Assembly: GCA_002335495.1 (NCBI GenBank)
Contig: DDBW01000014.1
Span: 9,831 to 73,830 of the forward strand
Reading direction: 5' to 3'
Origin: Candidatus Dojkabacteria bacterium UBA2022
GTDB lineage: Bacteria; Patescibacteriota; Dojkabacteria; SC72
DNA length: 64,000 bases
Both the position numbers and the translations under genes were made by a program. Every line of letters starts with the position of its first letter. The stretch's first letter is position 1. Shown here in pieces: positions 1-18,936 of this stretch. The notes under the pieces are model-generated. The model had not been told where the DNA came from. It saw only the letters and a program-made list of their open reading frames with translations, and made no database searches.

Positions 1-1
1 T

Positions 2-313
2 TCTATCCAAATAAACCCTTATTTACTCAAATATCCAATTTCATATTTGGCATCAGGGTTGGTGGGAGTACCTATGATTGGAATAGCAATTAATTCAATG
101 GGAAATAACTCTAATTCGGCTCTCGAATTTCTTTCTCAATTTATGATTGGTACTAGTGGATTCTTAGCAGGCAGTTTTTCCTTACATTTATTAAGTAAAA
201 TAATAAAACCTGTGAAAAATTCAATTAAGCATACAATATACCATGAACTTGCCCATTATATTTCTAACGATTTTAAAGTAAAACGTTTTGGCTTATTTCA
301 GCTTTCTCAATAA
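2..313 (+). CDS. 3' end of a gene that starts upstream of the window; C-terminal fragment with HExxH motif (possible membrane metalloprotease)
   Basis: The frame is open from base 2 to the stop at 311-313. The translated tail contains YHELAHY (HExxH) after a hydrophobic stretch. No start codon can be defined inside the window. Confidence 0.35.
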   Translation, partial: SIQINPYLLKYPISYLASGLVGVPMIGIAINSMGNNSNSALEFLSQFMIGTSGFLAGSFSLHLLSKIIKPVKNSIKHTIYHELAHYISNDFKVKRFGLFQLSQ

Positions 314-449
314 TTATATTTGATTAAAAATTTTCTGGGTAGATTGTGGGAAGAAATAAGAAAGTCTTTAATTACTTATTATTTAGCCGTACATTATCTT
401 TAGTTTACAGATTCACCTTTTATACTTTTTACAATATAATAAAAATATT

Positions 450-1256
450 ATGGATAAATACGTAATATTTTTAATAGTCCTTGTTTCGCTCATAGTACTC
501 ACTTTTTTGTTACTAGAAACACTTGTGTTTTTTATAGTTAACGATTTATCTATCCCTACAATAACTCTCTCAAAAGATATTAAGAGAGTACTAGTAATTT
601 ACCCACATCCTGATGACGAGATATTAATTACAGGAGGTTTTATGAAAAAACACTCAAAAGATAGAGAAATTACTTGGGTGGTACTATCAAAGGGTGAACG
701 AGGGACGCCTAATGCAGTTCTTAATGAGAACCTCAAAGAAATACGGGCAGACGAGGCAAAAAGGGTTTCAGAATTACTAAAAGTTAAAAGTTTTTCACAT
801 TACGATTTTAAGGATAATGAAATGGAAACACAGGAAGAGAAACTAGAGAAGAAAGTACAACAAATCGTTAAAGATTCTAATCCCGATTTAATAATTACTT
901 ACGACACCGCAGGGCTATATGGTCATCCAGATCATATTATTACTTCTGAAATAGTTACAAAGATTGCAGAAGAAAAGAATATAAAACTCTGGTATGCAAC
1001 AAACGCCAAAAGAGTACTTGATATGGCTTCATTACCTGAGCATATGGCAAAAGACCCTAACTTCAAGGATAAAAGAAAGTATCCAAATGTTAAAGTATTT
1101 GTAGGATTAGAGGGAAGTATAGCAAAGAGTAAGGGAATAAGCATATATGAAAGTCAATTGCAGTCATTCGTATCAGCTTATCCAATAAAGTGGATACCAT
1201 TGCCTATATACAACTTACCAATGGTTTACGAATATTTTTATCAAGTTAACGAATAG
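450..1256 (+). CDS. PIG-L/LmbE family N-acetylglucosaminyl deacetylase
   Basis: N-terminal TM helix. Motifs VIYPHPDDEILITGG and GHPDHI are typical of PIG-L (GlcNAc-PI de-N-acetylase/LmbE) zinc deacetylases. Confidence 0.8.
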   Translation: MDKYVIFLIVLVSLIVLTFLLLETLVFFIVNDLSIPTITLSKDIKRVLVIYPHPDDEILITGGFMKKHSKDREITWVVLSKGERGTPNAVLNENLKEIRADEAKRVSELLKVKSFSHYDFKDNEMETQEEKLEKKVQQIVKDSNPDLIITYDTAGLYGHPDHIITSEIVTKIAEEKNIKLWYATNAKRVLDMASLPEHMAKDPNFKDKRKYPNVKVFVGLEGSIAKSKGISIYESQLQSFVSAYPIKWIPLPIYNLPMVYEYFYQVNE

Positions 1257-1553
1257 CTTATTGTATAAACTTGAAAGTATTGCAAAACCCATTATGGGGG
1301 AATGTTAGAATTTTGGGGTCGCAAAACAGGACGTTTTCGACCTTTTGATTAAAAAGATTATACCACTGGCAAAAGAGCTTAAAAAGGTACAAAAAGACTA
1401 CTATGCATTTATGGAGATTGCGGATAAATTACCCAATAGCACAATAGATTACAAACTTTAGATATTAGATCCCAGAATTTCTATGACCTATTAGAGGGTA
1501 TTGCGGAGTGAGTACTACTTGTTGTTTAATAAACTAGACTAGTTTAAGAAACT

Positions 1554-1676
1554 TTATTTCTTCTTTTTGTCACTTCTTGTCTTTCTCCAAGCTCCAGATT
1601 TAGTTCTGGATCTTGGTTGTTTTCCTCCACCTTCATCTTTGACGTGCGGAATCCTACCAGCTCTTCTATCTGCCAT
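1554..1676 (-). CDS. small (40 aa) highly basic protein, unknown function
   Basis: Hand-translated minus-strand ORF MADRRAGRIPHVKDEGGGKQPRSRTKSGAWRKTRSDKKKK. A strong SD (GGAAAGGAGGT) lies 8 nt upstream of the ATG. It is absent from the ORF track because it is under 60 aa. Confidence 0.4.
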   Translation of the reverse strand: MADRRAGRIPHVKDEGGGKQPRSRTKSGAWRKTRSDKKKK

Positions 1677-1761
1677 ATATCTAACCTCCTTTCCAACGAC
1701 TCCTCACTCCGCATTTAATTATATCCAATTGTTACGAGAATATTAAATAACTATAGAGAAC

Positions 1762-1790
1762 TTCCAAATTTCATCTTCGAAAGATATAAT
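1762..1790 (+). promoter_or_regulatory. candidate sigma70-like promoter upstream of the res-ATPase-mod-AlbA_2 operon
   Basis: TTCCAA, then a 17 nt spacer, then TATAAT ending about 28 nt upstream of the res ATG. The -35 match is weak. Confidence 0.3.
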
Positions 1791-1817
1791 AGAGAAATAT
1801 TTACCTAATGCATAAAA

Positions 1818-4466
1818 ATGAAACTTAAGTTTGAAGCTAACCTACAGTACCAGAAAGATGCAATAAACTCAGTAGTGAAGTTATTTGAAGGTGCTCCATA
1901 CATAAGACCCGAAGATAGAATCTCTCAAGAAGTCTCCCCGAACATTTTAAAGATCACACAAGAAAAAATATTTGAGAATTACAACAAAATAGTTACCGAA
2001 AGTCTCATCGATGAAGGTAAACAAGCAAAGAATAGTGACCTATTGGATTTTTCAGTTGAAATGGAAACTGGAACTGGAAAAACTTACATATATTTGAGAA
2101 CTATCCTAGAGCTATATAAAAACTATGGTTTAACAAAATTCTTAATCGTTGTACCAAGTATTGCAGTAAAAGAAGGAGTTATCAAAACTTTAGATATGAC
2201 GAAAGACCATTTCAATGAGTTATTCAACGAAAAGATCCAATACTTCGAATATGACAGTAAGAAATCTACGAGAGTAAGGCATTTCGCCTACAGTAATACA
2301 CTTCAAGTAATGGTGATCAATGTTCAAGCATTTAATGCAGATGACAACATTATCAATCAAGAAAGAGATGTAAATAACGGAGCGAAACTAATTGATTTGA
2401 TCAAAGCCATAAGACCTGTTGTGATAATGGATGAACCTCAAGAAGGAATGGATAGTAAAAATATGGAGAAGAGATTCAATCAGTTAGATCCACTATTTAA
2501 GATTAGATACTCAGCCACACATAAAAAGCCAATAAACCTAGTCTACAGACTCACTCCTTATGAAGCATACAATCAGGGATTAGTTAAAAAGATTGAAGTG
2601 TACTCAATCCACGAAGAGAATACCCAAAGCAATGTTGAGATTGAGTTTAAAGAGATTAAATATACTTCAGCTAAACCAGAAGCAAAGTTACAAGTAAACT
2701 ATAAAGTTGGAACCGATTTCAAAACTAAAGACGGTTATTTCAAAGAATTAGACAACTTGGAAGAGAAAACTAAAAATCCCGCCTACAAAGGATGGATCAT
2801 TGAAAGAATATACAAGGATCTAATGGATAACACTGAGAAAGTGAAATTCAGTAACGGAATTGAATTAACAAGAGGCTCAAAACACGGATGGGATAAAGAA
2901 TCTATCTTTAGGGAACAGATACGCTGGACTATAAAAAGACATTTCCAAAAGAAAGAACAATACAAAGATCTAGGAATTAAAGTCCTATCTCTATTCTTCA
3001 TTGATCGAGTAGCAAACTATGTAAATGCAGAGGGGATTATCAAAAAGCTTTTCATTGAACTATATAAACAAGAATACAAAGATAAGTACGGGAAAGAACC
3101 TGAGAATGTTGATCAAGTACACAATGGATACTTTGCAAAAACCAAATCAGATGAATATACCGACAATGTTAACTCAATGCAGAAAAACAAAGAGATCTAC
3201 AACCTAATTATGAAAGATAAAGAGAGATTATTATCTTTTGAAGAACCATTAGAATTTATATTCTCTCACTCCGCACTAGGTGTTGGTTGGGATAATCCCA
3301 ATGTATTCCAAATATGTACCCTAAATGAATCACATAGTGAGGCTAAAAAGAGACAAGAGATAGGTAGAGGTTTAAGAATATGTGTTGATAAAACAGGTGA
3401 AAGATATAGAGATCCTGATACAGTCACAGAAGGACAAGAAATAAACCTTCTAACCGTAATCCCAAATGAAAGCTATCACGCATTTGTAACACAATATCAA
3501 GATGAAATTATCGAAGAGACTGGAGATACAAGAGCAACTAAAGTACGAAATGCGAAAAAGGGTGCAAACAAAATTGGAATTAACAAAGATATTTTAAACA
3601 GCGATGACTTCCAGAACTTATGGAAGAAGATACAGAAGAAAACAAAATTTATGGTCTCCTTTAGAGAACAAGAGTTGGTAGATAAATGTGTAGATGAACT
3701 TAGTTCAATAGTTGTAAGGGAGCAAATTATTCAGACCCAAGCAATACAAATTAAGAGTCTAAGTGAATCACAAGACATAAACCAGAATATCCTCACAAAA
3801 GGAGAAACTTCAACAAAAGCAAAGAGTTCTGTTGCCAATATTGATCTAATTGATCAACTATCTGAACAAACTTCTTTAAGTATTAAAACTGTAATTGAGA
3901 TACTAAGCAAGATTTCAAATCAAAGTATGCTTACTAAAAATCCAGTTGTATACCTTACAGAAGCAGTTAAAAGAATTAAACGAGTACTAAATACTGAAAT
4001 GGTAAGAGTTATTAGCTATCAACCTACTAATGAGGAATTCCCAATTGAAGATTTCGAGAAGTTCGATCCTCAGACATACAACGATGTAGTACCAGCACGT
4101 AAAGGGGTCTATGACGCCGTAGAATACGATTCAGCAATCGAAAAAGACTTTGTACTAGATATAGACCAAGAAAACAAAGTAAAGGCATTTGTGAAGCTAC
4201 CAAAATGGTACAAAATTGAAACACCTATTGGTACTTACAATCCAGACTTCGCTTTAGTAATGGAGAAAAAAGATCTTGAAAAAGGTGGAGAAACAAAATA
4301 CTACTTTGTAATTGAAACAAAAGGTACAGACGATATTAACGAGCTAAAAGATGAAGAGAAAATGAAGATTCAGTGTGCTATTAAACATTTTGAAGCAATT
4401 GGCTTTGAAAAATATATGGCACCTGTAAAGAATCTAAATAGCTTTAAGAGTAAGGCAAATATTTAA
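1818..4466 (+). CDS. res: Type III restriction enzyme Res subunit (SF2 helicase plus C-terminal PD-(D/E)xK nuclease)
   Basis: Helicase motif I METGTGKTY and DEAD-like VIMDEPQ. Type III Res-like length of 882 aa. C-terminal nuclease signature NPDFALV...YYFVIETKG. Confidence 0.8.
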   Translation: MKLKFEANLQYQKDAINSVVKLFEGAPYIRPEDRISQEVSPNILKITQEKIFENYNKIVTESLIDEGKQAKNSDLLDFSVEMETGTGKTYIYLRTILELYKNYGLTKFLIVVPSIAVKEGVIKTLDMTKDHFNELFNEKIQYFEYDSKKSTRVRHFAYSNTLQVMVINVQAFNADDNIINQERDVNNGAKLIDLIKAIRPVVIMDEPQEGMDSKNMEKRFNQLDPLFKIRYSATHKKPINLVYRLTPYEAYNQGLVKKIEVYSIHEENTQSNVEIEFKEIKYTSAKPEAKLQVNYKVGTDFKTKDGYFKELDNLEEKTKNPAYKGWIIERIYKDLMDNTEKVKFSNGIELTRGSKHGWDKESIFREQIRWTIKRHFQKKEQYKDLGIKVLSLFFIDRVANYVNAEGIIKKLFIELYKQEYKDKYGKEPENVDQVHNGYFAKTKSDEYTDNVNSMQKNKEIYNLIMKDKERLLSFEEPLEFIFSHSALGVGWDNPNVFQICTLNESHSEAKKRQEIGRGLRICVDKTGERYRDPDTVTEGQEINLLTVIPNESYHAFVTQYQDEIIEETGDTRATKVRNAKKGANKIGINKDILNSDDFQNLWKKIQKKTKFMVSFREQELVDKCVDELSSIVVREQIIQTQAIQIKSLSESQDINQNILTKGETSTKAKSSVANIDLIDQLSEQTSLSIKTVIEILSKISNQSMLTKNPVVYLTEAVKRIKRVLNTEMVRVISYQPTNEEFPIEDFEKFDPQTYNDVVPARKGVYDAVEYDSAIEKDFVLDIDQENKVKAFVKLPKWYKIETPIGTYNPDFALVMEKKDLEKGGETKYYFVIETKGTDDINELKDEEKMKIQCAIKHFEAIGFEKYMAPVKNLNSFKSKANI

Positions 4467-4471
4467 AAACT

Positions 4472-5929
4472 ATGTTTATAAAAAAGGCAACAATAAAAAA
4501 TTACAGAATATTTTCCTCAAGTGAGGATTTTATTATTGATAATATAAACGTACCAGATAATTCAAATGTTGGCAGTGGATTAACAATTCTTGTTGGAGAC
4601 AACGGTTGTGGAAAATCATCCATTCTTGAAGGAATATCTTTGCCAGTTCTATCATATAAATCTGAATCCTTTTGTTTAGAAGATCTAAACGACTTAGACT
4701 CTAAATGCGAGATAAAATTGTTTGCTAATTCGAATTTTGAAGTAAAAGGGAGTCTCCCTAATAAATCCAAACCAACTTTTCAAGCACAAGGTTTTGAATT
4801 TATAGGAAATATTAGAACTCGAGACAACAAATCATATTTAACACCATTAATTGTTTCAGATCAAAAGTTTATAAGAGCAGATGGTTTAGATAAGCCAGAA
4901 GATAGCAGTCCAGATTTAAGGGTAAACGTTAACAACCCCTTTAGCGGTAATCGTTTTACTGATAATGATTATCTATATCTAGACAAGAATAGGACATTCC
5001 AAACAAGGAATGGTACTTATAATACAACAAAATTTGACAGATTAATGGACAATTTTAATTTTCAATATCTAAAGTCGGTAGAAGAAGCCGAAAAAACGGA
5101 TATAAACGAATCCGTTAGACAAACAACTATCTCAAAAGTATCTAACACATTTTTGCAAAATTCATTTGAAAAGTTTAAAGAAATCTCTGGATACGACTTA
5201 TCCTTAAATATGATTTCATCTTTAGAGCCATTTAAACATGCAAGCATTGGTGATAACAGAGATAACTTACAACAAATAAAATTGTCTGCGTTAGGTTCTG
5301 GCTATGAGATGATCTTTACCCTTTTGTACAATTTTTATTTGTCACAACAAGCAGGAAAAGATTTAATTATACTTATTGACGAGCCCGAATTGCACCTTCA
5401 TCCAAAACTACAAGAAAAATTAGTAGAGGTTTTACTAGAATTTTCAAAAACTAGTCAAATAATTATTACTTCCCATTCACCAATCCTCGTAAAACAGCTA
5501 TGTGTAAATGACAAAGTCGAAACAAAGATAATCAAACTGGGTAACGGTGTTCCAGAATTGTCGTCAATAAATGAGAAGTTATTACCATACGATTCAGCAA
5601 ACGAAATAAACCACTTAGCTTTTGACTTCCCAACGCCAGAATATCACGATGAACTATATGGGAGATTGCAGGAGTTATTATTGTGCTTTGACGAAGCTAG
5701 CATAGAAACAGCTTTAGTTAGAGATCATAGTATTAGCAAGACAAAAAGATGGCAGCGGGAAAAAAATGGCGCGGTAAGTGGAGCGGAGTATGATATAACA
5801 CTTCAATCTTTTATCAGAAATAAACTTCACCATCCAGAAAATATTACTATGCAGAGTAAAAAGTTTACGACTAATGAGTTAGAGCAATCAATCAATGAGA
5901 TGCGAGTAATAATTAAATCGCTTATTTAA
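4472..5929 (+). CDS. ABC-type (AAA_21/AAA_15-like) ATPase with a distinct C-terminal domain carrying an R-x4-H (RNKLHH) HEPN-like motif; PrrC/RloC-like architecture
   Basis: Walker A GDNGCGKSS; degenerate signature LSALGSGYE; Walker B/H-loop LIILIDEPELHLHP; ITSHSP D-loop-like segment. The C-terminal roughly 130 aa have no Toprim motifs but contain IRNKLHHPEN. A 6-nt gap follows res and an 18-nt gap precedes mod. Confidence 0.6.
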   Translation: MFIKKATIKNYRIFSSSEDFIIDNINVPDNSNVGSGLTILVGDNGCGKSSILEGISLPVLSYKSESFCLEDLNDLDSKCEIKLFANSNFEVKGSLPNKSKPTFQAQGFEFIGNIRTRDNKSYLTPLIVSDQKFIRADGLDKPEDSSPDLRVNVNNPFSGNRFTDNDYLYLDKNRTFQTRNGTYNTTKFDRLMDNFNFQYLKSVEEAEKTDINESVRQTTISKVSNTFLQNSFEKFKEISGYDLSLNMISSLEPFKHASIGDNRDNLQQIKLSALGSGYEMIFTLLYNFYLSQQAGKDLIILIDEPELHLHPKLQEKLVEVLLEFSKTSQIIITSHSPILVKQLCVNDKVETKIIKLGNGVPELSSINEKLLPYDSANEINHLAFDFPTPEYHDELYGRLQELLLCFDEASIETALVRDHSISKTKRWQREKNGAVSGAEYDITLQSFIRNKLHHPENITMQSKKFTTNELEQSINEMRVIIKSLI

Positions 5930-5946
5930 GTTTATGAGTAGTAAGA

Positions 5947-7824
5947 ATGAATAAAACATATAAACAGTCAGAAGACCTATACAAAGAGAAGGTTGAGCAA
6001 TTAAAAGCCATTTATCCTGCACTCTTTAGCGATGAGGGTAATTTAAATGAAGATGAGCTAAGAAACTTTCTAAAGCAGTTCGCTTCTACCTCTGAAGGCA
6101 AATATGAGTTTAACTGGGCAGGGAAAATGACTGCGAAAAGAAATGCTTTTACTACTTCAAGAGCAATGTTAAAACCAGACAAAGATAGAAGTATTGATTT
6201 TGATAAAACAGAAAACTTAATTATCGAAGGAGATAACTTAGAAGTATTAAAACTACTTCAGAAATCGTACCAAGGAAAAATCAAATGCATTTATATTGAT
6301 CCTCCATACAATACAGGAAACGACTTTATCTATACGGATAACTTTTCAGAAGAGAAGAAGGCATACTGGGAAAAGTCAGGTACAACACAAGATGGAGTGA
6401 AGTTAGACACAAATACAGAATCACAAGGGAGATATCATAGCAACTGGTTGAATATGATATATCCAAGATTACTACTTGCTAGAAATCTGTTAAGGGAAGA
6501 TGGTGTGATTTTTATCAGTATTAATGACTTTGAAGTTCATAATCTAAAGAAAGCAATGGATGAAATATTTGGAGAAGAAAACTTTATCGCCCAATTAGTT
6601 TGGGAGAATAAAGAAGGTGGAGGTAGTTCAGATAGCAAACTTTTTAGGATTAAACACGAATATTTGCTTTCATACACAAATAATAAAAATATCGTCAATA
6701 TCAAGGGTGAAATCAAAGGTGAAGACAATAGTTATACATATGAAGACGAATATCTATCTAAACGTGGTAAATACAAACTAATAAAGCTTAATAGCTTCAG
6801 CGTACAGTACTCTCCGTCACTTGACTACGAAATATTACTCCCAAACGGGGAAAAGGTTATGCCTAGTGAAAATGGGAAAAGAGGATGTTGGCGTTGGTCT
6901 AAAGAAAAGCTAGATTGGGGAATAAGAAATGGTTTTATTGAATTTAAAGAAAATTCAGAAGGTAAGTTATGGGTCTATACAAAGCAGTATTCTAAGGTTG
7001 ATAACGAAGACAAACCAATAATTCGAGAGTTACCCTTTAGAGGAGTAATCAGTAAATATTCCAGTACCAAGGCAACAAAACAACTCGAACAATTAATGGG
7101 GTTAAAATTATTTGATTATTCGAAGCCTTTCGAGCTAATAAAGTTTATATGTACAATATCCTCAGACAAAGACTCAATCGTTTTGGACTTTTTTGCAGGT
7201 TCAGGCACTACGGCACAAGCTGTAATGGAATTAAATAAAGAAGATCGTGGTAACAGGAAATTTATACTTGTACAAATACCAGAAAAAACAGATGAAAACA
7301 GTGAAGCTTACAAAGCAGGATATAAAAAAATATCAGATATATGTATCGAAAGAGTAAAACGAGTATCTAAGAAATTATCAGAAGAAAAAGCTACAGGAGA
7401 TCTAGGGTTTAAAGTCTTTACATTATCTCCAAGTTATTTCCCTGAAAACCTCTTTACACCAGATCCAGAGAAGACAGAAGAAGAAAATAAAAAAGCATTG
7501 GCAAAATACATAGAAGAAGCATCCACACAATTGGAATTCAAATTTGACGAGTTTGATTTAATGTATGAGGTATTACTTAAAGACGGATTTACACTAAACT
7601 TTAAAGCTGGGAAGTTATCTGAATTTCCTAAGAACAATATCTATAAAGTTACGGACGGTGAAAAACACGCTCTAGTGACCCTTGATCCCGATTTAAAGGA
7701 CGAAACCCTACAAAAGCTACAAAGTTACACTGAAGAAAGATTCATTTGTTTAGAGAGGGCTGTAGACACTACGAAGAAGTGGAACTTACAGAATATGTTT
7801 GGGAGTAATCTTTGGGTAATTTAA
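5947..7824 (+). CDS. mod: Type III restriction-modification Mod subunit (beta-class N6-adenine DNA methyltransferase)
   Basis: Motif IV DPPYNTG precedes motif I FFAGSGTT, with a target-recognition region between them. At 625 aa it is adjacent to res. Confidence 0.85.
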   Translation: MNKTYKQSEDLYKEKVEQLKAIYPALFSDEGNLNEDELRNFLKQFASTSEGKYEFNWAGKMTAKRNAFTTSRAMLKPDKDRSIDFDKTENLIIEGDNLEVLKLLQKSYQGKIKCIYIDPPYNTGNDFIYTDNFSEEKKAYWEKSGTTQDGVKLDTNTESQGRYHSNWLNMIYPRLLLARNLLREDGVIFISINDFEVHNLKKAMDEIFGEENFIAQLVWENKEGGGSSDSKLFRIKHEYLLSYTNNKNIVNIKGEIKGEDNSYTYEDEYLSKRGKYKLIKLNSFSVQYSPSLDYEILLPNGEKVMPSENGKRGCWRWSKEKLDWGIRNGFIEFKENSEGKLWVYTKQYSKVDNEDKPIIRELPFRGVISKYSSTKATKQLEQLMGLKLFDYSKPFELIKFICTISSDKDSIVLDFFAGSGTTAQAVMELNKEDRGNRKFILVQIPEKTDENSEAYKAGYKKISDICIERVKRVSKKLSEEKATGDLGFKVFTLSPSYFPENLFTPDPEKTEEENKKALAKYIEEASTQLEFKFDEFDLMYEVLLKDGFTLNFKAGKLSEFPKNNIYKVTDGEKHALVTLDPDLKDETLQKLQSYTEERFICLERAVDTTKKWNLQNMFGSNLWVI

Positions 7825-7828
7825 TAGT

Positions 7829-9085
7829 ATGGAAATATTAAGAAGAGATATTAAAAATATATCTTTTGACGAAATAGTTGAATTTTGTAAACTAGGGTAT
7901 CCTGAGGGATCCCAATTAGACTATAAGAAGAAATTTAGTGAAAACTTCTGGAGTAATGAACTTCAAAAAGATGTTGCATCCTTTGCAAATATGCAGGGAG
8001 GGATAATAATAGTTGGAGTAAAAGAGGATAAAACAACGGGAAAACCAAAAGAATGGGAGGGGATAGAAATTAATGCAGAAGAAATTGATAGGATCGACAG
8101 AATAGTGGCAAATATGACCCCATTGCCACACGCGGAATCTCACTTAATTCCTAACGAAGAGAATACTAAATGTTTTTTAGTAATACGTATTCTTGAGGGT
8201 TCGAATAAGCCTTATTATGCTAATAATGATCCTATTGAATGGATAAGAACGGGAAAAGTAAAAACACCGATTGAACCTGCTTCGCCTCAATACAAAAAAT
8301 ATCTATTTGACGATAAGAATAAAGCTTCAGAACAAAGGAAATTTCTACTTGAATATGCAAACAAGATATTTAAAGGGCATACTTTTAATAGATTTGAAGA
8401 AATGCTTTTAAATGGGGAACTGGATCACTCAGTCATAGGCAGTGTACATCCAGATTTTGATAAAACCAAAGCGAGACTACAAATAGCAATCCTCCCTTAC
8501 AATCCAAATAAGACATTGATAACACCAAGCTCATTAAAAGATAAAATATACAATATTCGGATCTCAGAAGGGATTACAGATTTCCCAATAGTAAATTGGG
8601 CTTTCCAGACAACACCGAAAGGAATATCAACGTTTGTACATCTAGACAACGATCAAACAATTAATATGCAAATTTTTGGAGAAGGTTTAATATTTTTTTC
8701 GTATGACATATGTCAAGAAAAAGAGACTGAAAAGAATATCTGGCAAGGTTTTAGTCTTCCGGTAATATTGAAATACACTCATTTATCACTTAAATTGGCT
8801 GAAAGTTTGTACAGAAATCTAGGATATCAAGGAGAATTGTTAAGCAAAATAGAGATAGCGAATGTTATTGGACTTAATGCTTGTAGTGATTTACATAGCT
8901 CTCAATACAAGAAAGCCCTTCTCTATAGCTATAATTGGGATATATTGTTTAATACATACTCAATATCAAATGAAGATGAGTACTGGAAAACGTTTGCCGA
9001 ATTTGGTAAATCCGTTTATGAAAGCTTTGATTTTAGCTGGGTCACTCCGGATAAAATAAAAGAATATACTATGTCTAGTTGTTAG
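7829..9085 (+). CDS. AlbA_2 (Schlafen-core-like putative DNA/RNA-binding) domain protein with an uncharacterised C-terminal domain
   Basis: N-terminal roughly 130 aa match the AlbA_2 pattern (ISFDEIVEFCKLGYPEGSQLDYKKKF...ASFANMQGGIIIVGVKED...EEIDRIDRIV). It starts 5 nt after the mod stop, so it sits in the same operon. Confidence 0.65.
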   Translation: MEILRRDIKNISFDEIVEFCKLGYPEGSQLDYKKKFSENFWSNELQKDVASFANMQGGIIIVGVKEDKTTGKPKEWEGIEINAEEIDRIDRIVANMTPLPHAESHLIPNEENTKCFLVIRILEGSNKPYYANNDPIEWIRTGKVKTPIEPASPQYKKYLFDDKNKASEQRKFLLEYANKIFKGHTFNRFEEMLLNGELDHSVIGSVHPDFDKTKARLQIAILPYNPNKTLITPSSLKDKIYNIRISEGITDFPIVNWAFQTTPKGISTFVHLDNDQTINMQIFGEGLIFFSYDICQEKETEKNIWQGFSLPVILKYTHLSLKLAESLYRNLGYQGELLSKIEIANVIGLNACSDLHSSQYKKALLYSYNWDILFNTYSISNEDEYWKTFAEFGKSVYESFDFSWVTPDKIKEYTMSSC

Positions 9086-9121
9086 GCTTTATATTCTATT
9101 AAATAGTAATATAATTTAGCT

Positions 9122-9403
9122 ATGCATAAGACGGAGGAATCAGTAACAAAACAACAAAAGCCAAAACTTTCTGAAATAGCTAAAAAGAAGATGGAAGAAA
9201 TCTTCATAAAACAGAAAAAAGATCCCAAAGAGGATCCTGCTAAAATATATCTTCAGCTATTAAACCAGTACGAACCTCCTGTTGACGAAGACGATGAAGA
9301 TGACGAGAATACTGATAACTCATTAGAAGACTATACTTTCTTTAATAACGACGGAACTAAGTTCAAAGAGCTACCTAAAAATGAGAGGGTTAAGACAAAA
9401 TAA
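9122..9403 (+). CDS. small hypothetical protein with a strongly acidic C-terminal segment (DEDDEDDEN)
   Basis: ORF with a Lys-rich N-terminus and an Asp/Glu run. No recognisable motif. Confidence 0.35.
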   Translation: MHKTEESVTKQQKPKLSEIAKKKMEEIFIKQKKDPKEDPAKIYLQLLNQYEPPVDEDDEDDENTDNSLEDYTFFNNDGTKFKELPKNERVKTK

Positions 9404-9716
9404 AGATCAGATTGTCGAACTCCTCCACGATTACATCGTATTAGGTTACAGTATCAATAAATCTTGTCAGTACATAGGAATTCCGCACACAACAGTTCAT
9501 ACTTGGATAAACAACGATCCAGAGGTTCGTATGAAAATTAACTCTTGGAAAAACATTGTAAATCTTGAAGCAAGAAAAAGAATTGTCGAAAAAATAGTAA
9601 ACGGAGATATCAAAGCAAGTATGTGGTGGCTAGATAAGTTTGATTATATTGAAAACTCAAATGAAGAGAAAAGTAATCAATTAAGCATCGAAATAAATGG
9701 CAGAAAAGTATATTAA
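9381..9716 (+). CDS. small HTH DNA-binding protein, terminase-small-subunit-like (alternatively an excisionase/RDF-like protein)
   Basis: HTH-like segment YSINKSCQYIGIPHTTVHTWINNDPEV followed by the ASMWWLDKFDY motif, reminiscent of phage small terminase/HTH proteins. It overlaps both the upstream ORF and the recombinase start. Confidence 0.35.
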   Translation: MRGLRQNKDQIVELLHDYIVLGYSINKSCQYIGIPHTTVHTWINNDPEVRMKINSWKNIVNLEARKRIVEKIVNGDIKASMWWLDKFDYIENSNEEKSNQLSIEINGRKVY

Positions 9717-11385
9717 CGAAATCGCAGAAGAAGAGTTAAGAATCTATTGCGAAGAAGTTAGAAAGATCAATTTGCGAAGGCGTGGAATCTATATTCCCCC
9801 AGAGGAGAAACTGAGATATGTACTATATGCAAGAAGATCAACAAAATCTTCTCCCAAGGAAAGATTAGATAAAGCCACGTCAAGAGAAGAAAGAAAAAAA
9901 CTAGATAAACAAGAAAGGTCTATTCCAGATCAAATCAGTGAATGTTTGAAATTAGCACAAAAAGAAGAGCTACAAGTTGTTTTGATAGTGCAAGAAGAAG
10001 GATCAGCATATGCAAAGGATAATCGAAAGAAGTTTGATAAGATGATCAATGATATAAAAATTGGTAAATACGATGGGATAATTGCTTATGCACCAGATAG
10101 ATTAGCAAGAAATATGAAAGAAGCTGGTGAAATGCTTGATATGGTAGAAGAAGGAGTTATCAAAGATCTTAAATTTCCGACATTCCATTTTGAACGAGAA
10201 ACAAATTCAATGCTCTCGCTTGGACTAAACTTCTTACTCGCAGAAAACTATTCAACAAACCTTTCATATCACACAAAAAAGGCAAATGAAGGGATTATCA
10301 AAGAAGGAAAGGGAATAAGAAATTCAAAACTTGGATACATACTAAATAAAGATCGTTACTTTAGACCAGATCCAGATAATTTTGAAAAAGTAAAAACATT
10401 ATTCAATTTAGGATTAGAAGGGAGAACTTTAATTGATATTGTAGACATAAGTAAAAGACTTGCAATAACTTTCAATGGAAAACTACGAGTATTTACGACA
10501 CAAAATCTATCTAGTCTCTTACGGGATCCATTTTATGCAGGAAAACATCTTAATGGAACCCAAATAATTGACCTAAAAGCAATCGATAAAGACTTCACAC
10601 CTATGATTACTGCTCTAGATTTTACAACCATTAGAAGGCACTACGACAAATTAAGTAGTCGAAGAAAATCGAAAACCAAAGAGCCACTGTTCTTTACTGG
10701 ACGCGTAATTTGTAACAATTGTGCGAAGTTATGCTCAGCAGGAAAAAGTACAAGCGGAAGTGGACATAAATATCTGTGGGTTAATTGTACAAACAAGGAA
10801 TGCAAGCACAAAGTAAGAATTAGGGGAACAGATCTTCTTAAATATTCTGGAAAAATACTGACCAATCTTTCAAAGAGAATAACCAAGGAAGATTTCGATA
10901 AATTTGTATCACAAGTGAAGAAAGAACAGCCTGAAAGACTTGATCGTTTACAATACAAACATATTTCACTTAGTCAGGAAATCAATGAAAAGAAGGAAGA
11001 AATCAGTGCGAAGGAAAAGCAAAATATGCGAAAGGACTTAAGCCTAGAAACAAAAAAATTGATTAATATTGAAATTAGTAAGCTTTATTCTGAGTTGAAC
11101 AAATTAAACTCGGAAAGAGAGGAAATAAAGAATGACCTTCTTATATTGAAGGTAAACTTAGGAACAGAATTAGAGTCTTTAGAAAAGTTTTCGACCTTTT
11201 TAAAAGAGGCCGACAATACAATAAAAACCAGTCATAATAAGTACAAGGTAGACAAAATCATAAAAATGGCATTTTCGACCTATGTCGTAGAGGGCAAAGA
11301 TATTGTAGCATATAAACTTAAATCACCACTTGAGGGGTACAAAAATCTCGATAGTTTCTTGAATGGGGTGGAAGATGGGACTTGA
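9697..11385 (+). CDS. large serine recombinase (integrase-type)
   Basis: Catalytic-region motifs YARRST and DGIIAYAPDRLARN. A Cys-rich zinc-ribbon segment CNNCAKLC...CTNKECKHK. A long C-terminal coiled coil. The last 22 nt overlap the 3' end of tRNA-His. Confidence 0.7.
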   Translation: MAEKYINEIAEEELRIYCEEVRKINLRRRGIYIPPEEKLRYVLYARRSTKSSPKERLDKATSREERKKLDKQERSIPDQISECLKLAQKEELQVVLIVQEEGSAYAKDNRKKFDKMINDIKIGKYDGIIAYAPDRLARNMKEAGEMLDMVEEGVIKDLKFPTFHFERETNSMLSLGLNFLLAENYSTNLSYHTKKANEGIIKEGKGIRNSKLGYILNKDRYFRPDPDNFEKVKTLFNLGLEGRTLIDIVDISKRLAITFNGKLRVFTTQNLSSLLRDPFYAGKHLNGTQIIDLKAIDKDFTPMITALDFTTIRRHYDKLSSRRKSKTKEPLFFTGRVICNNCAKLCSAGKSTSGSGHKYLWVNCTNKECKHKVRIRGTDLLKYSGKILTNLSKRITKEDFDKFVSQVKKEQPERLDRLQYKHISLSQEINEKKEEISAKEKQNMRKDLSLETKKLINIEISKLYSELNKLNSEREEIKNDLLILKVNLGTELESLEKFSTFLKEADNTIKTSHNKYKVDKIIKMAFSTYVVEGKDIVAYKLKSPLEGYKNLDSFLNGVEDGT

Positions 11386-11441
11386 ACCCACAACCCTCGG
11401 TTCCACAAACCGATGCTCTAACCAATTGAGCTACTCCCACC
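11364..11441 (-). tRNA. tRNA-His (anticodon GTG), with encoded G-1 and 3' CCA
   Basis: Hand-folded cloverleaf: G-1 opposite C73, acceptor GTGGGAG/CTTCCAC, D-stem GCTC/GAGC, anticodon loop TTGTGGA, T-loop TTCAAGT, CCA encoded. Confidence 0.8.
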
Positions 11442-11502
11442 ATAATACCCAAAGATTATACATTATATACACCCAATAAAACAATTTCTCCCCCTAATAC
11501 CT

Positions 11503-15477: not shown

Positions 15478-16230
15478 ATGAAAAAGGTAATAGTAACCGG
15501 AGATGACGGATATAAAGCAGTAGGACTTAAAGTTCTTGCACAAGCCCTTAAAAATGATTTTGAAGTTACAATCATTGCCACTAAAGAACAGAAAAGTGGA
15601 GCAGGTGGCAGTGTAAAAGCCTATGGAGAGAAAGAGTGGGGGATGGAGATAGTGGATGGCATCAAGTCATACTGGGTAGACGGAACCCCAGCAGACTCTA
15701 TGGAGTTTGCCCAAGGAGTATTCCCAAACGGCGTAGACTATTTGATCTCCGGAATTAACTGGGGAGAGAACATAGGCCTAAGTACTTTCACAGCATCAGG
15801 AACAGGAGGCGCCGCCCTTAGAGGATACTCCTTAGGAATTGCTCCAAAAGCCATTATAATGAGCTGGCTTAAACCTAACTCAGAGAACGATTGGTGGGAG
15901 GATAAAAGTTCTGAAGAAGTAGAACCATTCCTACAATACCCAGGTGGAAGCGCACTACACGTAGTAAAGGAAGCAATTAAAAACTCTTTTTGGAATAAAG
16001 ACATAGTAAATGTAAATTTCCCGCCAAACCCAACCCAGGATTATAAAGTAACCAAACTCCTAAAACACCTACCGGACTTCTATAAATACCCCGTAATAAT
16101 AAAAGAGAATACCTATGAGTACGACAAAGAAGTATTTGCATACACACAACAAACCAAAGAAAATACAACCCTTGATGTAGGAGCCATCCTATCAGGATAT
16201 ATCTCAATAACCCCTGTAACGATAGAATAA
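15478..16230 (+). CDS. surE: 5'/3'-nucleotidase SurE family
   Basis: SurE motifs VTGDDGY, GTPADS, SGINWGENIG...SGTGGAA, and C-terminal GYISITPV. Confidence 0.8.
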   Translation: MKKVIVTGDDGYKAVGLKVLAQALKNDFEVTIIATKEQKSGAGGSVKAYGEKEWGMEIVDGIKSYWVDGTPADSMEFAQGVFPNGVDYLISGINWGENIGLSTFTASGTGGAALRGYSLGIAPKAIIMSWLKPNSENDWWEDKSSEEVEPFLQYPGGSALHVVKEAIKNSFWNKDIVNVNFPPNPTQDYKVTKLLKHLPDFYKYPVIIKENTYEYDKEVFAYTQQTKENTTLDVGAILSGYISITPVTIE

Positions 16231-16282
16231 TCTGCAATTCCACCTTAACAAGTAACAAATAACGATCGCTTATTAGTAACAT

Positions 16283-17137
16283 TTACCATTTCTTACTCAT
16301 CAATGATAAGGAGTCATCTTTAGCTAGCAAAACTTTCATTTGCCTTATAGCTATATCATTTAATCTAATCAAACGTTCTGATTGTGTTAGACCAAGGTTA
16401 ATATATTCTGCATTAAGAGATTCCAAGTTAGTAAGACATACAAGCTGTTGAAGGGTGGCATGATCTCTTATATTCCCATTAAGACCAGGGTTTAGCTCTC
16501 GCCATTCTTTTGCAGTTATTCCAAATAACGCAACATTTAAAACGTCTGCTTCATTCGCATAAACAAAATTTTCTCTTAGTTTTCCAATTTTCTTCGGAAC
16601 AATATTATGTTTTATTGCGTCCGTATGGATGCGATAGTTAACCTTAGACAAAATACGTTTAACATTCCATTCCAAATTTTCAGTTTCATTTTGCTTCAAT
16701 AGCTGATATTCTCGAATCAAGAATAGCTTAAATTCTGCTGATACCCAACTTGCAAATTCAAAAGCAATATCCTTGTGAGCAAAAGTTCCAGATCCATACC
16801 TACCTCTACTGGTTTTTAAACCAATAGCATTTGTAATAGTCACCCACCTTTCAGGAGATAATGTAAAAGAATTTAATCCAGACTCTTTTCTAAAGGAGTC
16901 GAATTCGACCCCTTTAAAATTTATGTTATTTATTGATTCCCACAAGCCAAGGAATTCTATTGTATTCCTTGTTCTTAGCCAATTTTTAACAACGTCTTTT
17001 GGTTCATCTGGGTTTTTATATCTAGCGATATCAGTGAGGGAAATATATTCATCTTTAATATTTATATCAATATCCTTAACTATAATCTTGTTTTTCATCT
17101 TAGTATCCCCTTTACAATTTAGTTTATGAAATAACAT
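16283..17137 (-). CDS. KilA-N domain-containing protein (phage/virus-derived DNA-binding protein family)
   Basis: N-terminal roughly 110 aa fit a KilA-N/APSES-like pattern (ISLTDIARYKNPDEPKDVVKNWLRTRNTIEFLGLWE). It lies immediately beside tRNA-Leu(CAG). Confidence 0.6.
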   Translation of the reverse strand: MLFHKLNCKGDTKMKNKIIVKDIDINIKDEYISLTDIARYKNPDEPKDVVKNWLRTRNTIEFLGLWESINNINFKGVEFDSFRKESGLNSFTLSPERWVTITNAIGLKTSRGRYGSGTFAHKDIAFEFASWVSAEFKLFLIREYQLLKQNETENLEWNVKRILSKVNYRIHTDAIKHNIVPKKIGKLRENFVYANEADVLNVALFGITAKEWRELNPGLNGNIRDHATLQQLVCLTNLESLNAEYINLGLTQSERLIRLNDIAIRQMKVLLAKDDSLSLMSKKW

Positions 17138-17179
17138 ACATAAACTTTAGCAATACATTATGAAATCCCCAATATAATC

Positions 17180-17266
17180 TGCCAGGAGGGGGAGTTGAAC
17201 CCCCACCTCTTTTTAAAGGAGACTACGACCTGAACGTAGCGTGTCTGCCAATTTCACCATCCTGGC
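17180..17266 (-). tRNA. tRNA-Leu (anticodon CAG), class II with a long variable arm
   Basis: Hand fold: acceptor GCCAGGA/TCCTGGC with A73; anticodon stem CTACG/CGTAG; loop TTCAGGT; long variable arm; T-arm GGGGG-TTCAACT-CCCCC. CCA is not encoded. Confidence 0.75.
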
Positions 17267-18936
17267 TACTTGAACTCCCAATTCTGAATGTAATTATACC
17301 TCTCTTCAGGATAATTGATACTATCTACCTCAACATTCTCAATTCTATTTGAAACAACGACATTAAACTCAGGCTCGTAAAGGAAGATAGCAGGAGCATC
17401 CTCATTAATCAACCTCTGTACAATACTATACGACTGCTGCCTATCAGCCTTTTTAGTCTGGGTTCTCCCTCTTTCCAAAAAGATATCAACACGATCATAA
17501 GTATAACCAGAGAGGTTAAGATATGGATAATCCTTACGCAAAGAGTGCCACAAATCATACTGATCAGGATCGATACTAGTTTCAACCTCATACAAAAGAA
17601 TACCGTAATCCCTTGTAGCAAGCGTCTCACGCGTCAACCTCTCAAATGACTGCCCATCCAGCTCTACAATTACACCCTGCTCCTTCAAAAGATCCTTCAA
17701 AGAGGAAACAATCGCGGAATTAGCGTCGTTATCCAGATATGTAATTGTTACCGTCAAGACTTTACCATCAGAAGATTGATAGTATCCCGAAGCCTTATCC
17801 TTCTTATACCCAGCCCCACTTAGTTCCGCCTCTGCCTTTTTAGGATCAAATTTATAGTATCCAATTGTAGAATCGTAAACCCATGACTTTGCAGAATATG
17901 ATGAGAACGCCGGCCTTCCATCCACAGAAGCCATCTCAATCAACCTATCCCTATCTATCAAATAACTAAGCCCTCTTCGCACTGAAGCAGTACCGAAAGC
18001 ACTCACACGATTATTTAAAAACAACACCTTTTTACGCGTCCCTATAACAGTCTGCAAAATATCAAACTGCTTTGAATACTCAGACATATAACTCAGGTCC
18101 CTCAACGGCACTCCACTAACCATATCCAACTTCCTGTTTCTAAAAGCCACTTCTAACTCCTGGGCAGAAGCATACATATGGTAGTTAATTTTTCTAACAG
18201 ACAGGTTTCTCTCGTAAACAGAGGATTGTACAAGAGTAATTAACATATCGGAAGAACTTTCAATCTCGTAATACCCGTTACCAATAGGCTTTTTAGAAAA
18301 AGTACTCTCTGAGATCTGTGAAATAGATCTTCCCTCAAAAACATGATCGGGAACTATATATAATGAAATAGTTTCCCAGAAAGTAGAGCTATACTGATCT
18401 AGAACTACCTTAAATTTATACCTATCTATCTTTTCAACTCTCAAACCCTCAAATCCCTGACCCACAGTTTCCTGAGAAAGTTTCTGCGACAACTCCCGCG
18501 CAGTGTTAATCGTAAATACTACATCATCAGCAGTAACCGCCTCACCATCATGCCATTTTGCATCCGAAACCATTGTAAATTCATAGGTTAACAGATCCGA
18601 AGAAACACTCCAGCTCTTAACAAGATCCCCAACAGGTCTACCGTCACTCTGAATCCTAACCAACTTTCTAAAAACAAGAGCCTGAATATCACGATCAACC
18701 TGACTCTGAGGAATATATAGAGGATTGAGGTTGGAAACAAACCCAACAGTCCCTTCATTTACAACTCCGACCTCTCCCTTACCAACCACCTTGCTGAAGT
18801 CCAGAGAAGGGAAGTATTGATTGCCAACAAAAAGCAAAATACCCAAAGTTATGAGAATATAACTAATCGGGGCTAGCCCCCTAGTTACCTTCGCTAAAAT
18901 ATCCGGATAATTCCAAAGAATATCCCTGAAGCTCAT
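17266..18936 (-). CDS. ABC transporter substrate-binding protein, family 5 (peptide/nickel/oligopeptide-binding, OppA-like)
   Basis: N-terminal TM/signal. The 556-aa length and overall pattern fit SBP_bac_5. No permease or ATPase genes lie nearby. Confidence 0.6.
   Translation of the reverse strand: MSFRDILWNYPDILAKVTRGLAPISYILITLGILLFVGNQYFPSLDFSKVVGKGEVGVVNEGTVGFVSNLNPLYIPQSQVDRDIQALVFRKLVRIQSDGRPVGDLVKSWSVSSDLLTYEFTMVSDAKWHDGEAVTADDVVFTINTARELSQKLSQETVGQGFEGLRVEKIDRYKFKVVLDQYSSTFWETISLYIVPDHVFEGRSISQISESTFSKKPIGNGYYEIESSSDMLITLVQSSVYERNLSVRKINYHMYASAQELEVAFRNRKLDMVSGVPLRDLSYMSEYSKQFDILQTVIGTRKKVLFLNNRVSAFGTASVRRGLSYLIDRDRLIEMASVDGRPAFSSYSAKSWVYDSTIGYYKFDPKKAEAELSGAGYKKDKASGYYQSSDGKVLTVTITYLDNDANSAIVSSLKDLLKEQGVIVELDGQSFERLTRETLATRDYGILLYEVETSIDPDQYDLWHSLRKDYPYLNLSGYTYDRVDIFLERGRTQTKKADRQQSYSIVQRLINEDAPAIFLYEPEFNVVVSNRIENVEVDSINYPEERYNYIQNWEFK

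Follow-up and report, generated by a model that had tools for sequence, protein, structure and literature searches.

A Schlafen nuclease fused to a family-specific C-terminal domain in a Candidatus Dojkabacteria genome: a candidate anti-phage system of mobile islands

Introduction

What might a protein be doing directly behind the methyltransferase gene of a Type III restriction–modification (R-M) system when two-thirds of its length lies beyond any recognizable domain? The question is raised by a gene (pSlfn, 7829–9085) on a 64,000-nucleotide stretch of DNA, hereafter the window, from a genome of Candidatus Dojkabacteria, a lineage of the Candidate Phyla Radiation (CPR), derived from bioreactor sludge. 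A sequence-only reading of this DNA had assigned the N-terminus of the product to the AlbA_2 (Schlafen-core) domains, had described the remainder as a C-terminal domain of 270 amino acids (aa) that could be a novel effector or sensor, and had seen the gene as translationally coupled to the methyltransferase gene, mod. An identical public protein (HRI06013.1, also from Candidatus Dojkabacteria) carries the NCBI name ‘ATP-binding protein’.

Proteins of this general kind have recently acquired a function: in 2026, Perez Taboada et al. (Nat Microbiol, PMC13056530) showed that prokaryotic Schlafens (pSlfns) are widespread anti-phage tRNases and counted no fewer than 55 domain compositions among them. 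Nearly all of them (97%) are fused to other domains, 17% of the fusions (558 clusters) are unannotated and 1.5% are TATA-box-binding-protein-like, and ∼70% lie within 10 kb of a known defence gene (PMC13056530). From sequence features and by analogy with these proteins, we think it reasonably probable that the window gene encodes a single-polypeptide anti-phage system, comprising a tRNase, a helical connector and a sensor or regulatory C-terminal domain (C-domain).

The Schlafen nuclease domain

The AlbA_2/Schlafen assignment is solid. The Pfam profile PF04326 (SLFN_AlbA_2) matches aa 26–148 with E = 1.4e-14 and 55.1 bits, against a gathering cut-off of 25.3 bits. Fold comparison agrees: an AlphaFold2 model built from an alignment of 66 full-length homologues is of high quality (predicted local distance difference test, pLDDT, 92.5; predicted template modelling score, pTM, 0.89), and a Foldseek search of its N-terminal part against the PDB found the N-domain of SLFN13 (1.5e-5), the tRNase domain of SAMD9 (1.6e-4), SLFN5, SLFN11, SLFN14 and the bacterial AlbA_2 structures 3lmm (DIP2311) and 2kyy, with E-values from 1.5e-5 to 2e-3 overall. 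This part of the sequence-only reading thus withstands comparison at the level of both profile and fold, with the catalytic triad also in place.

The predicted active site looks intact. The hallmark of active Schlafen nucleases, human and prokaryotic alike, is an Ex4(E/D)xK motif (PMC13056530), and in the window protein it takes the form E26-x4-D31-x-K33 (EGSQLDYK), which a profile-to-PDB alignment places on ESTHVEFK of human SLFN14. The same alignment pairs E66, also conserved in the family, with the second Asp in the ‘GVDD’ segment of SLFN14. Across the 66 full-length homologues, E26 is retained in 61, K33 in 62 and an acidic residue at position 31 likewise in 62 (57 D and 5 E). The cryo-electron microscopy structure of CbCash has a Mg2+-binding triad, E17/D22/K24, that is catalytic (PMC13462974), and the E15A/D20A variant of RorSlfn5 is nuclease-dead (PMC13056530). 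The profile alignment to CbCash chain 9ylu_A pairs query residues 26–76 with chain residues 17–71 at E = 0.86, with E26 facing residue 17, the first position of the match.

The start of the protein, an ATG codon, is backed by conservation of the N-terminus, as the initial methionine is shared by 45 of the 66 homologues. The NCBI name of the identical protein is unsupported, and misleading, because a Pfam scan finds no P-loop, HATPase or other nucleotide-binding module; presumably the name derives from AAA_4, the old name of PF04326.

The C-terminal region

A word-indexed search with the full protein recovered only the protein itself and two relatives (81% and 46% identity). The family, a rare one, was found by an exhaustive hidden Markov model (HMM) search with aa 160–418 against 1.84 billion cluster representatives. 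At E ≤ 1e-3 this yielded 95 proteins, of which 40 also pass E ≤ 1e-10; most are 400–445 aa long and are matched in the C-terminal half. PF04326 is present in every one of the 66 full-length members and is their only Pfam domain, and a second search with a profile of the C-domain again retrieved PF04326 proteins only, so that the C-domain is real and conserved and is found solely as a fusion to a Schlafen nuclease. Some 30 of the 95 hits fall short of full length; many of these resemble fragments, and a few might be stand-alone copies. Several of ∼250–260 aa (P0040, P0059, P0067 and others) start with a methionine inside the helix region described below and lack the Schlafen domain; they could be independent proteins made up of the helix and the C-domain, or else gene calls that were cut short.

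The ∼266 residues beyond the Schlafen domain have no match in Pfam, NCBIfam, PADLOC or the sequences of the PDB (the NCBIfam scan of the protein gave a noise match only, E = 0.01), and Pfam, PADLOC and NCBIfam find no HATPase, helicase or helix-turn-helix (HTH) module anywhere in the protein. The earlier statement that the remaining two-thirds hold neither a known motif nor a HATPase/helicase module is upheld by these searches. The single 270-aa domain fared differently: the region without a known match stands, but in the model it breaks down into one long, basic alpha-helix of 42 residues (aa 153–194, isoelectric point 9.4), a linker of lower confidence (approximately aa 195–214) and a compact alpha/beta domain of ∼205 aa (Table 1). 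The helix serves as a connector and might also be a dimerization element or a lever.

The alpha/beta domain is confidently modelled on its own (pLDDT 91), with helices of 22, 23 and 11 residues. Its elements run in the order strand, helix, about six strands, a 22-residue helix, four strands and then three helices, one short and the others of 17 and 11 residues. A fold search found no structural match to the C-domain at E ≤ 1e-3 in the PDB or BFVD; the weak resemblances in BFVD, none of which reaches that threshold, are to TATA-box-binding-protein-like proteins. Only scattered single-member noise came from comparing a C-domain profile with PDB sequences and from scanning 35 C-domains against Pfam under relaxed settings, and hhalign detected no internal duplication in the C-domain.

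Conservation within the family offers a hint to the role of this domain. On average, two family members share 45% identity over the nuclease domain, 27% over the helix and 25% over the C-domain, and the C-domain is acidic (median isoelectric point 5.5). Its conserved positions are mostly proline, glycine, aromatic or hydrophobic (QPxxP, FP, IPxG, GYQG, YxW, DT, IYWSxGY), and the 66-sequence alignment holds no catalytic-looking or conserved polar motif in this domain. Since it is acidic and has no catalytic-looking constellation, the C-domain is unlikely to be a second enzymatic effector or a DNA/RNA binder; given also that it diverges faster than the nuclease, we infer that a sensor or regulatory module is the better fit. 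Of the two roles that the sequence-only reading had offered, effector or sensor, the second is therefore retained and the first disfavoured. A similar pattern is known from pSlfn5, where the nuclease is conserved and divergence is concentrated in the C-terminal domain, the proven Ig-like (immunoglobulin-like) sensor (Perez Taboada et al., PMC13056530).

Relation to known Schlafen systems

The window protein shares a PF04326 domain with the Ex4(E/D)xK motif, N-terminal in its case, with RorSlfn5 (Slfn plus Ig-like sensor) and EcoSlfn7 (DUF262–Slfn). With the pSlfn classes of the same study (PMC13056530) it has in common the single polypeptide, the faster-diverging non-nuclease C-domain and the defence-island or mobile context. 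Compared with the descriptions of those classes, it differs in having an alpha/beta C-domain placed after a 42-residue helix, which is not Ig-like, DUF262, HisKinase, HTH or DUF5929, and in belonging to a family found mainly in metagenome-assembled genomes (MAGs) of CPR/Patescibacteria rather than in Enterobacterales. The model of the C-domain is not the Ig-like beta-sandwich of pSlfn5, and the fold search gave no immunoglobulin or integrin match. Nor does the protein have the AlbA_2 architecture with HATPase_c_4 or HTH, as Pfam detects no GHKL/HATPase or HTH domain in it or in the 66 family members.

Two further prokaryotic systems invite comparison. A Schlafen protein of Enterococcus lactis with an unannotated C-terminus, picked using small serine recombinases as bait, acts by abortive infection (PLoS Biol 2026, PMC13552941), and by its description it resembles the window protein in combining a Schlafen domain with a C-terminus that has no known domain. 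The bait in that work was, however, small serine recombinases, and the recombinases neighbouring our family are large (∼430–560 aa where complete). The second system, Cash (CRISPR-associated Schlafen; CbCash, PDB 9ylu, PMC13462974), has the same E-D-K triad, and its fused sensor controls oligomerization and exposure of the active site; the likeness is limited to the short Schlafen segment described above, and the window protein has no Csx15/Rossmann-like sensor of cyclic tetra-adenylate (cA4). The genomic setting differs too, in that the annotated neighbours in the window are R-M, ATPase and recombinase genes and none is CRISPR-Cas, although CRISPR arrays were not searched for explicitly.

Among eukaryotic proteins, SLFN11, SLFN13, SLFN14 and the tRNase domain of SAMD9 share the fold of the nuclease lobe and the catalytic motif. 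Unlike the eukaryotic Schlafens, the window protein has a single lobe and not a two-lobe pseudo-dimer, lacks the SWADL linker and the helicase, and bears an unrelated C-terminal module.

A model for the function of the window protein

We hypothesize that the Schlafen domain (aa 1–152) acts as a metal-dependent endoribonuclease through the triad E26/D31/K33 and, by homology, that its substrate would be tRNA. The helix would join this nuclease to the family-specific alpha/beta domain, which may hold the nuclease inactive until an infection cue, most probably a phage protein, is recognized. Activation, probably with a change of oligomeric state, would then release tRNA cleavage, and the ensuing arrest of translation would lead to abortive infection or a reduced burst. 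This mechanism is drawn by analogy with two characterized proteins: the sensor of RorSlfn5 binds a phage tail assembly chaperone and the nuclease cuts tRNA anticodon arms (PMC13056530), while in CbCash ligand-driven re-oligomerization exposes the active site and tRNA loops are cut (PMC13462974). In the window, pSlfn would form a second layer of defence beside the Type III R-M system, not a subunit of it, and the gene would be cargo of islands mobilized by recombinases.

Hosts of the family

A taxonomic census was taken from a 16-sequence subgroup with one peptide pattern, the 66-sequence alignment being too variable for the purpose, and the census is accordingly incomplete. Of the 20 full-length loci it placed in species-representative genomes, 13 belong to CPR/Patescibacteria (Saccharibacteria, Levybacteria, Woesebacteria, WWE3, Daviesbacteria, Moranbacteria, Gracilibacteria, Paceibacterota, Parcubacteria, Berkelbacteria and unclassified members), and the other seven to MAGs labelled Gammaproteobacteria, Ignavibacteriales or Limisphaerales, or unclassified. 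No member from Firmicutes was seen among these 20 loci or in the plasmid collection, where protein-search matches were restricted to the Schlafen domain. A protein search of the phage collection gave no match to the family, and a scan of viral contigs gave one match of 46 residues only.

In the complete genome of a Berkelbacteria member (CP011213.1; locus L026, 10001–11207), the gene is split into two overlapping open reading frames (ORFs; 10001–10276 and 10230–11207), which is probably either a frameshifted pseudogene or a sequencing error. One MAG labelled Gammaproteobacteria (CAYUZE01) contains two diverged paralogues on different contigs (L013 and L015); a serine recombinase lies close to one of them, and a Mod-like methylase together with a LexA-like gene close to the other.

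Gene neighbourhoods across the family

An all-against-all BLAST comparison of 311 neighbours from 25 loci revealed no conserved partner gene. The largest neighbour clusters are serine recombinases, which are homologous to that of the window and lie within 6 kb of pSlfn in 11 of the 25 loci, and LexA-like proteins, in six loci. A Type III Mod homologue occurs near pSlfn in three loci only: it adjoins the gene in the window and in the 81%-identical relative (L002), and lies ∼1.5 kb upstream in L015. The remaining R-M neighbours are of other types, namely Type IIG in three loci, a D12 methylase in one and a C5 methylase with a MutH-type nuclease in one. R-M genes of some type stand beside ∼8 of the 27 loci seen in all, and the association with defence genes across the family is partial. 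Further neighbours include DUF2726 (four loci), the SMEK/CTD12 components of ABC-3C systems (two), XRE-type HTH proteins (several) and a Rep protein (L001), and some loci have hypothetical or housekeeping neighbours only. Taken as a survey of the contexts of homologues, these neighbourhoods differ from locus to locus, abound in recombinases, R-M systems and repressors, and are not mainly of a housekeeping kind.

The link to mod that the sequence-only reading had stressed is present in the window element and in its close relative, but it is not a feature of the family; because the linkage occurs in just three of the 25 loci, we see no functional pairing of mod with pSlfn, which is a stand-alone, mobile, defence-island gene.

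The LexA-like neighbours deserve a description of their own. A LexA-like S24 repressor (LexA_DNA_bind plus Peptidase_S24) stands beside pSlfn in loci from different phyla (L007, L008, L012, L015, L016/L090 and L025), divergent from it in five of the six. At L008 and L012 the 75-bp intergenic region contains the palindrome AAGTAAC-N5-GTTACTT, and SOS- or induction-linked expression of pSlfn is possible at the LexA-like loci, going by this arrangement. The intergenic region is identical between these two loci (5502–5576 of L008, from a Levybacteria MAG, and 6647–6721 of L012, from a Daviesbacteria MAG), as are the match statistics of their pSlfn proteins, and in both the gene order is Type IIG R-M, LexA-like gene, pSlfn. 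Such identity points to an element that is shared or was transferred recently; the two loci are best counted as one independent observation.

The island in the window

In the window, res, an ABC-type ATPase gene, mod and pSlfn form a tight co-directional string with pSlfn last (Table 1), and the Type III R-M genes and AriA/PtuA-like ATPase place pSlfn close to known defence genes. GC content is ∼0.33 over window positions 1–11500 and 0.39–0.42 elsewhere in the window, stepping up to 0.40–0.42 just after the serine recombinase gene, which marks the right edge; the left edge lies beyond the start of the window, as the 2 kb upstream, seen in L003, are even lower in GC (0.28–0.31). This low-GC stretch is a horizontally acquired island, and the association of AlbA_2 domains with defence islands, to which the sequence-only reading had pointed, is borne out here by the R-M system and ATPase.

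Table 1. Features of the pSlfn locus in the window, in order of position (all coordinates refer to the window).
Feature	Coordinates	Strand	Basis and remarks
res, Type III restriction subunit, first gene of the co-directional cluster	1818..4466	+	Pfam ResIII, RE_endonuc; PADLOC REase_III 8.4e-211
ABC-type ATPase (AAA_21/AAA_15), 485 aa, between res and mod	4472..5929	+	Pfam; PADLOC hits NsnB, AriA, PtuA, GajA
mod, Type III methyltransferase, directly upstream of pSlfn	5947..7824	+	Pfam N6_N4_Mtase; PADLOC MTase_III 3.8e-177
pSlfn gene, complete, 418 aa	7829..9085	+	ATG start; ORF list
N-terminal Schlafen/AlbA_2 nuclease domain, aa 1–152	7829..8284	+	PF04326; Foldseek; AlphaFold2 pLDDT >90
Catalytic motif E26-x4-D31-x-K33 (predicted)	7904..7927	+	Alignment to SLFN14 motif
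Single long alpha-helix, aa 153–194	8285..8410	+	DSSP on AlphaFold2 model
C-terminal alpha/beta domain, aa 215–418, family-specific	8471..9082	+	AlphaFold2 model
Two small overlapping ORFs between pSlfn and recombinase, 93 aa and 111 aa	9122..9716	+	ORF list
Large serine recombinase, right edge of low-GC island	9697..11385	+	Pfam Resolvase, Recombinase

The junction between mod and pSlfn is short: the mod stop codon (TAA, 7822–7824) is followed by four nucleotides (‘tagt’) and then by the pSlfn ATG at 7829, in agreement with the earlier statement that the gene starts 5 nt past the mod stop, counted from the last base of the stop codon. No obvious Shine-Dalgarno sequence was seen at any of the ten gene starts inspected in the window. 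The promoter/terminator scan found no terminator-like site between mod and pSlfn, so co-transcription of the two genes is likely on sequence grounds; as a whole the scan of the window was uninformative, with fewer promoter-like sites than in shuffled sequences. One such site (TTTATA-16-TATAAT, 9088–9115) lies just past the pSlfn stop.

The usual order of Type III genes is mod followed by res. In the window (1818–7824) the order is res, ATPase, mod. The ATPase belongs to a large, well-conserved family (more than 1000 homologues at E ≤ 1e-20, ∼50% identity), whose members are also found alone beside an integrase or resolvase, or between hsdS and hsdR in the Type I R-M operon of an Uhrbacteria genome, and it gives the impression of a separate defence gene that has entered R-M operons time and again. 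A two-gene system of an AriA-like ATPase with a Schlafen protein was considered for the window and rejected, as the ATPase has a homologue near no other member of the pSlfn family and its relatives occur in unrelated contexts.

Between pSlfn and the recombinase, the 93-aa ORF is rich in Lys, Glu and Asp and has no match, and the 111-aa ORF, which overlaps the start of the recombinase gene by 20 nt, weakly resembles HTH proteins or a small terminase subunit (PHROG, 3e-7); phmmer shows that both are kept downstream of pSlfn in L002. Outside the island, a 284-aa KilA-N-domain protein (16283–17137, minus strand) sits in a second low-GC patch (∼0.34 at 16000–17500), possibly another mobile or phage-derived insertion.

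Alternative explanations

The recombinases suggest a role for pSlfn in which the element, and not host immunity, is served: as a toxin, addiction or exclusion module, it would stabilize or protect a serine-recombinase element through post-segregational killing or the exclusion of competitors. The 11 recombinase loci fit such a role, as do the Rep protein at one locus, the position of the window copy on an island that ends at the recombinase and the identical element in MAGs of two CPR lineages, yet association of this kind does not discriminate, given how often defence genes ride such elements. No antitoxin-like partner is conserved beside pSlfn, the phage and viral collections searched hold no member of the family, and the recombinase-linked Schlafen genes tested to date act as phage defence (PMC13552941), all of which makes an element-serving module rather unlikely in our judgement. 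Still more improbable is a non-catalytic nucleic-acid-binding or regulatory protein, for example one that controls expression of the R-M operon or of the element. It would accord with the traditional annotation of AlbA_2 proteins (‘putative DNA-binding’, ‘ATP-binding protein’, transcriptional regulator), which the NCBI name perpetuates, with the many bacterial PF04326 proteins that carry HTH or HATPase modules and are named regulators, and with the faint BFVD resemblances to TATA-box-binding-protein-like proteins; it is at odds with the almost invariant E/D/K triad, with the lack of HTH, HATPase and other ATP-binding motifs, with a C-domain whose acidity is unlike that of a DNA binder, and with linkage to no regulated operon that is conserved.

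The short junction with mod raises the third possibility, that pSlfn is an accessory subunit of the Type III R-M system, translationally coupled to Mod, which senses inhibition of Mod/Res or adds an RNase arm. PARIS, in which an anti-restriction protein is the trigger and tRNA the target, offers a precedent for tRNA cleavage triggered in this way, and the 4-nt spacer with no terminator, the repetition of the junction in the 81%-identical relative and the R-M genes beside about eight loci all lend it some appeal. Against this, Mod homologues lie near the gene in so few loci, R-M neighbours otherwise belong to unrelated types (IIG, II-C5/MutH, D12) and are often on the opposite strand, most members of the family have no R-M neighbour, and the ATPase within the same gene string has also inserted independently and occurs in other contexts; we therefore rate an R-M subunit as the least probable of these explanations, and a very improbable one. 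The reading we prefer, an anti-phage Schlafen tRNase under the control of its own C-domain, accommodates the conserved triad as well as the variable neighbourhoods.

Novelty and implications

The sequence-only reading had raised the possibility of a novel protein, and that may hold for the C-terminal module, which is without a Pfam or significant structural match, but not for the principle, as pSlfns with unannotated sensor fusions were already established as anti-phage tRNases in 2026 (PMC13056530, PMC13462974, PMC13552941). The logic of the Schlafen effector is known, and catalogues of pSlfn fusions already include many unannotated ones. Any novelty would lie in this particular module and its concentration in CPR bacteria, so that the gain is incremental and not conceptual. 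A further outcome is the correction of a misleading name in the databases.

As immune effectors, Schlafen tRNases are found in bacteria and humans alike, and it is the sensor that distinguishes each system. To these the present family adds a sensor-like module whose hosts are mainly CPR bacteria, a group in which immunity and phages have hardly been studied, and it could help to find triggers from CPR phages. A bolder proposal, which we offer tentatively and hold to be doubtful, is that the C-domain represents an undescribed class of infection sensor, largely confined to CPR/Patescibacteria, that controls the tRNase via the long helix and that, in elements like that of the window, might back up R-M, for instance through recognition of an anti-restriction factor or a structural protein from a phage. 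If true, such a CPR-confined sensor class would offer a first way into the question of how ultra-small episymbionts perceive the phages that infect them.

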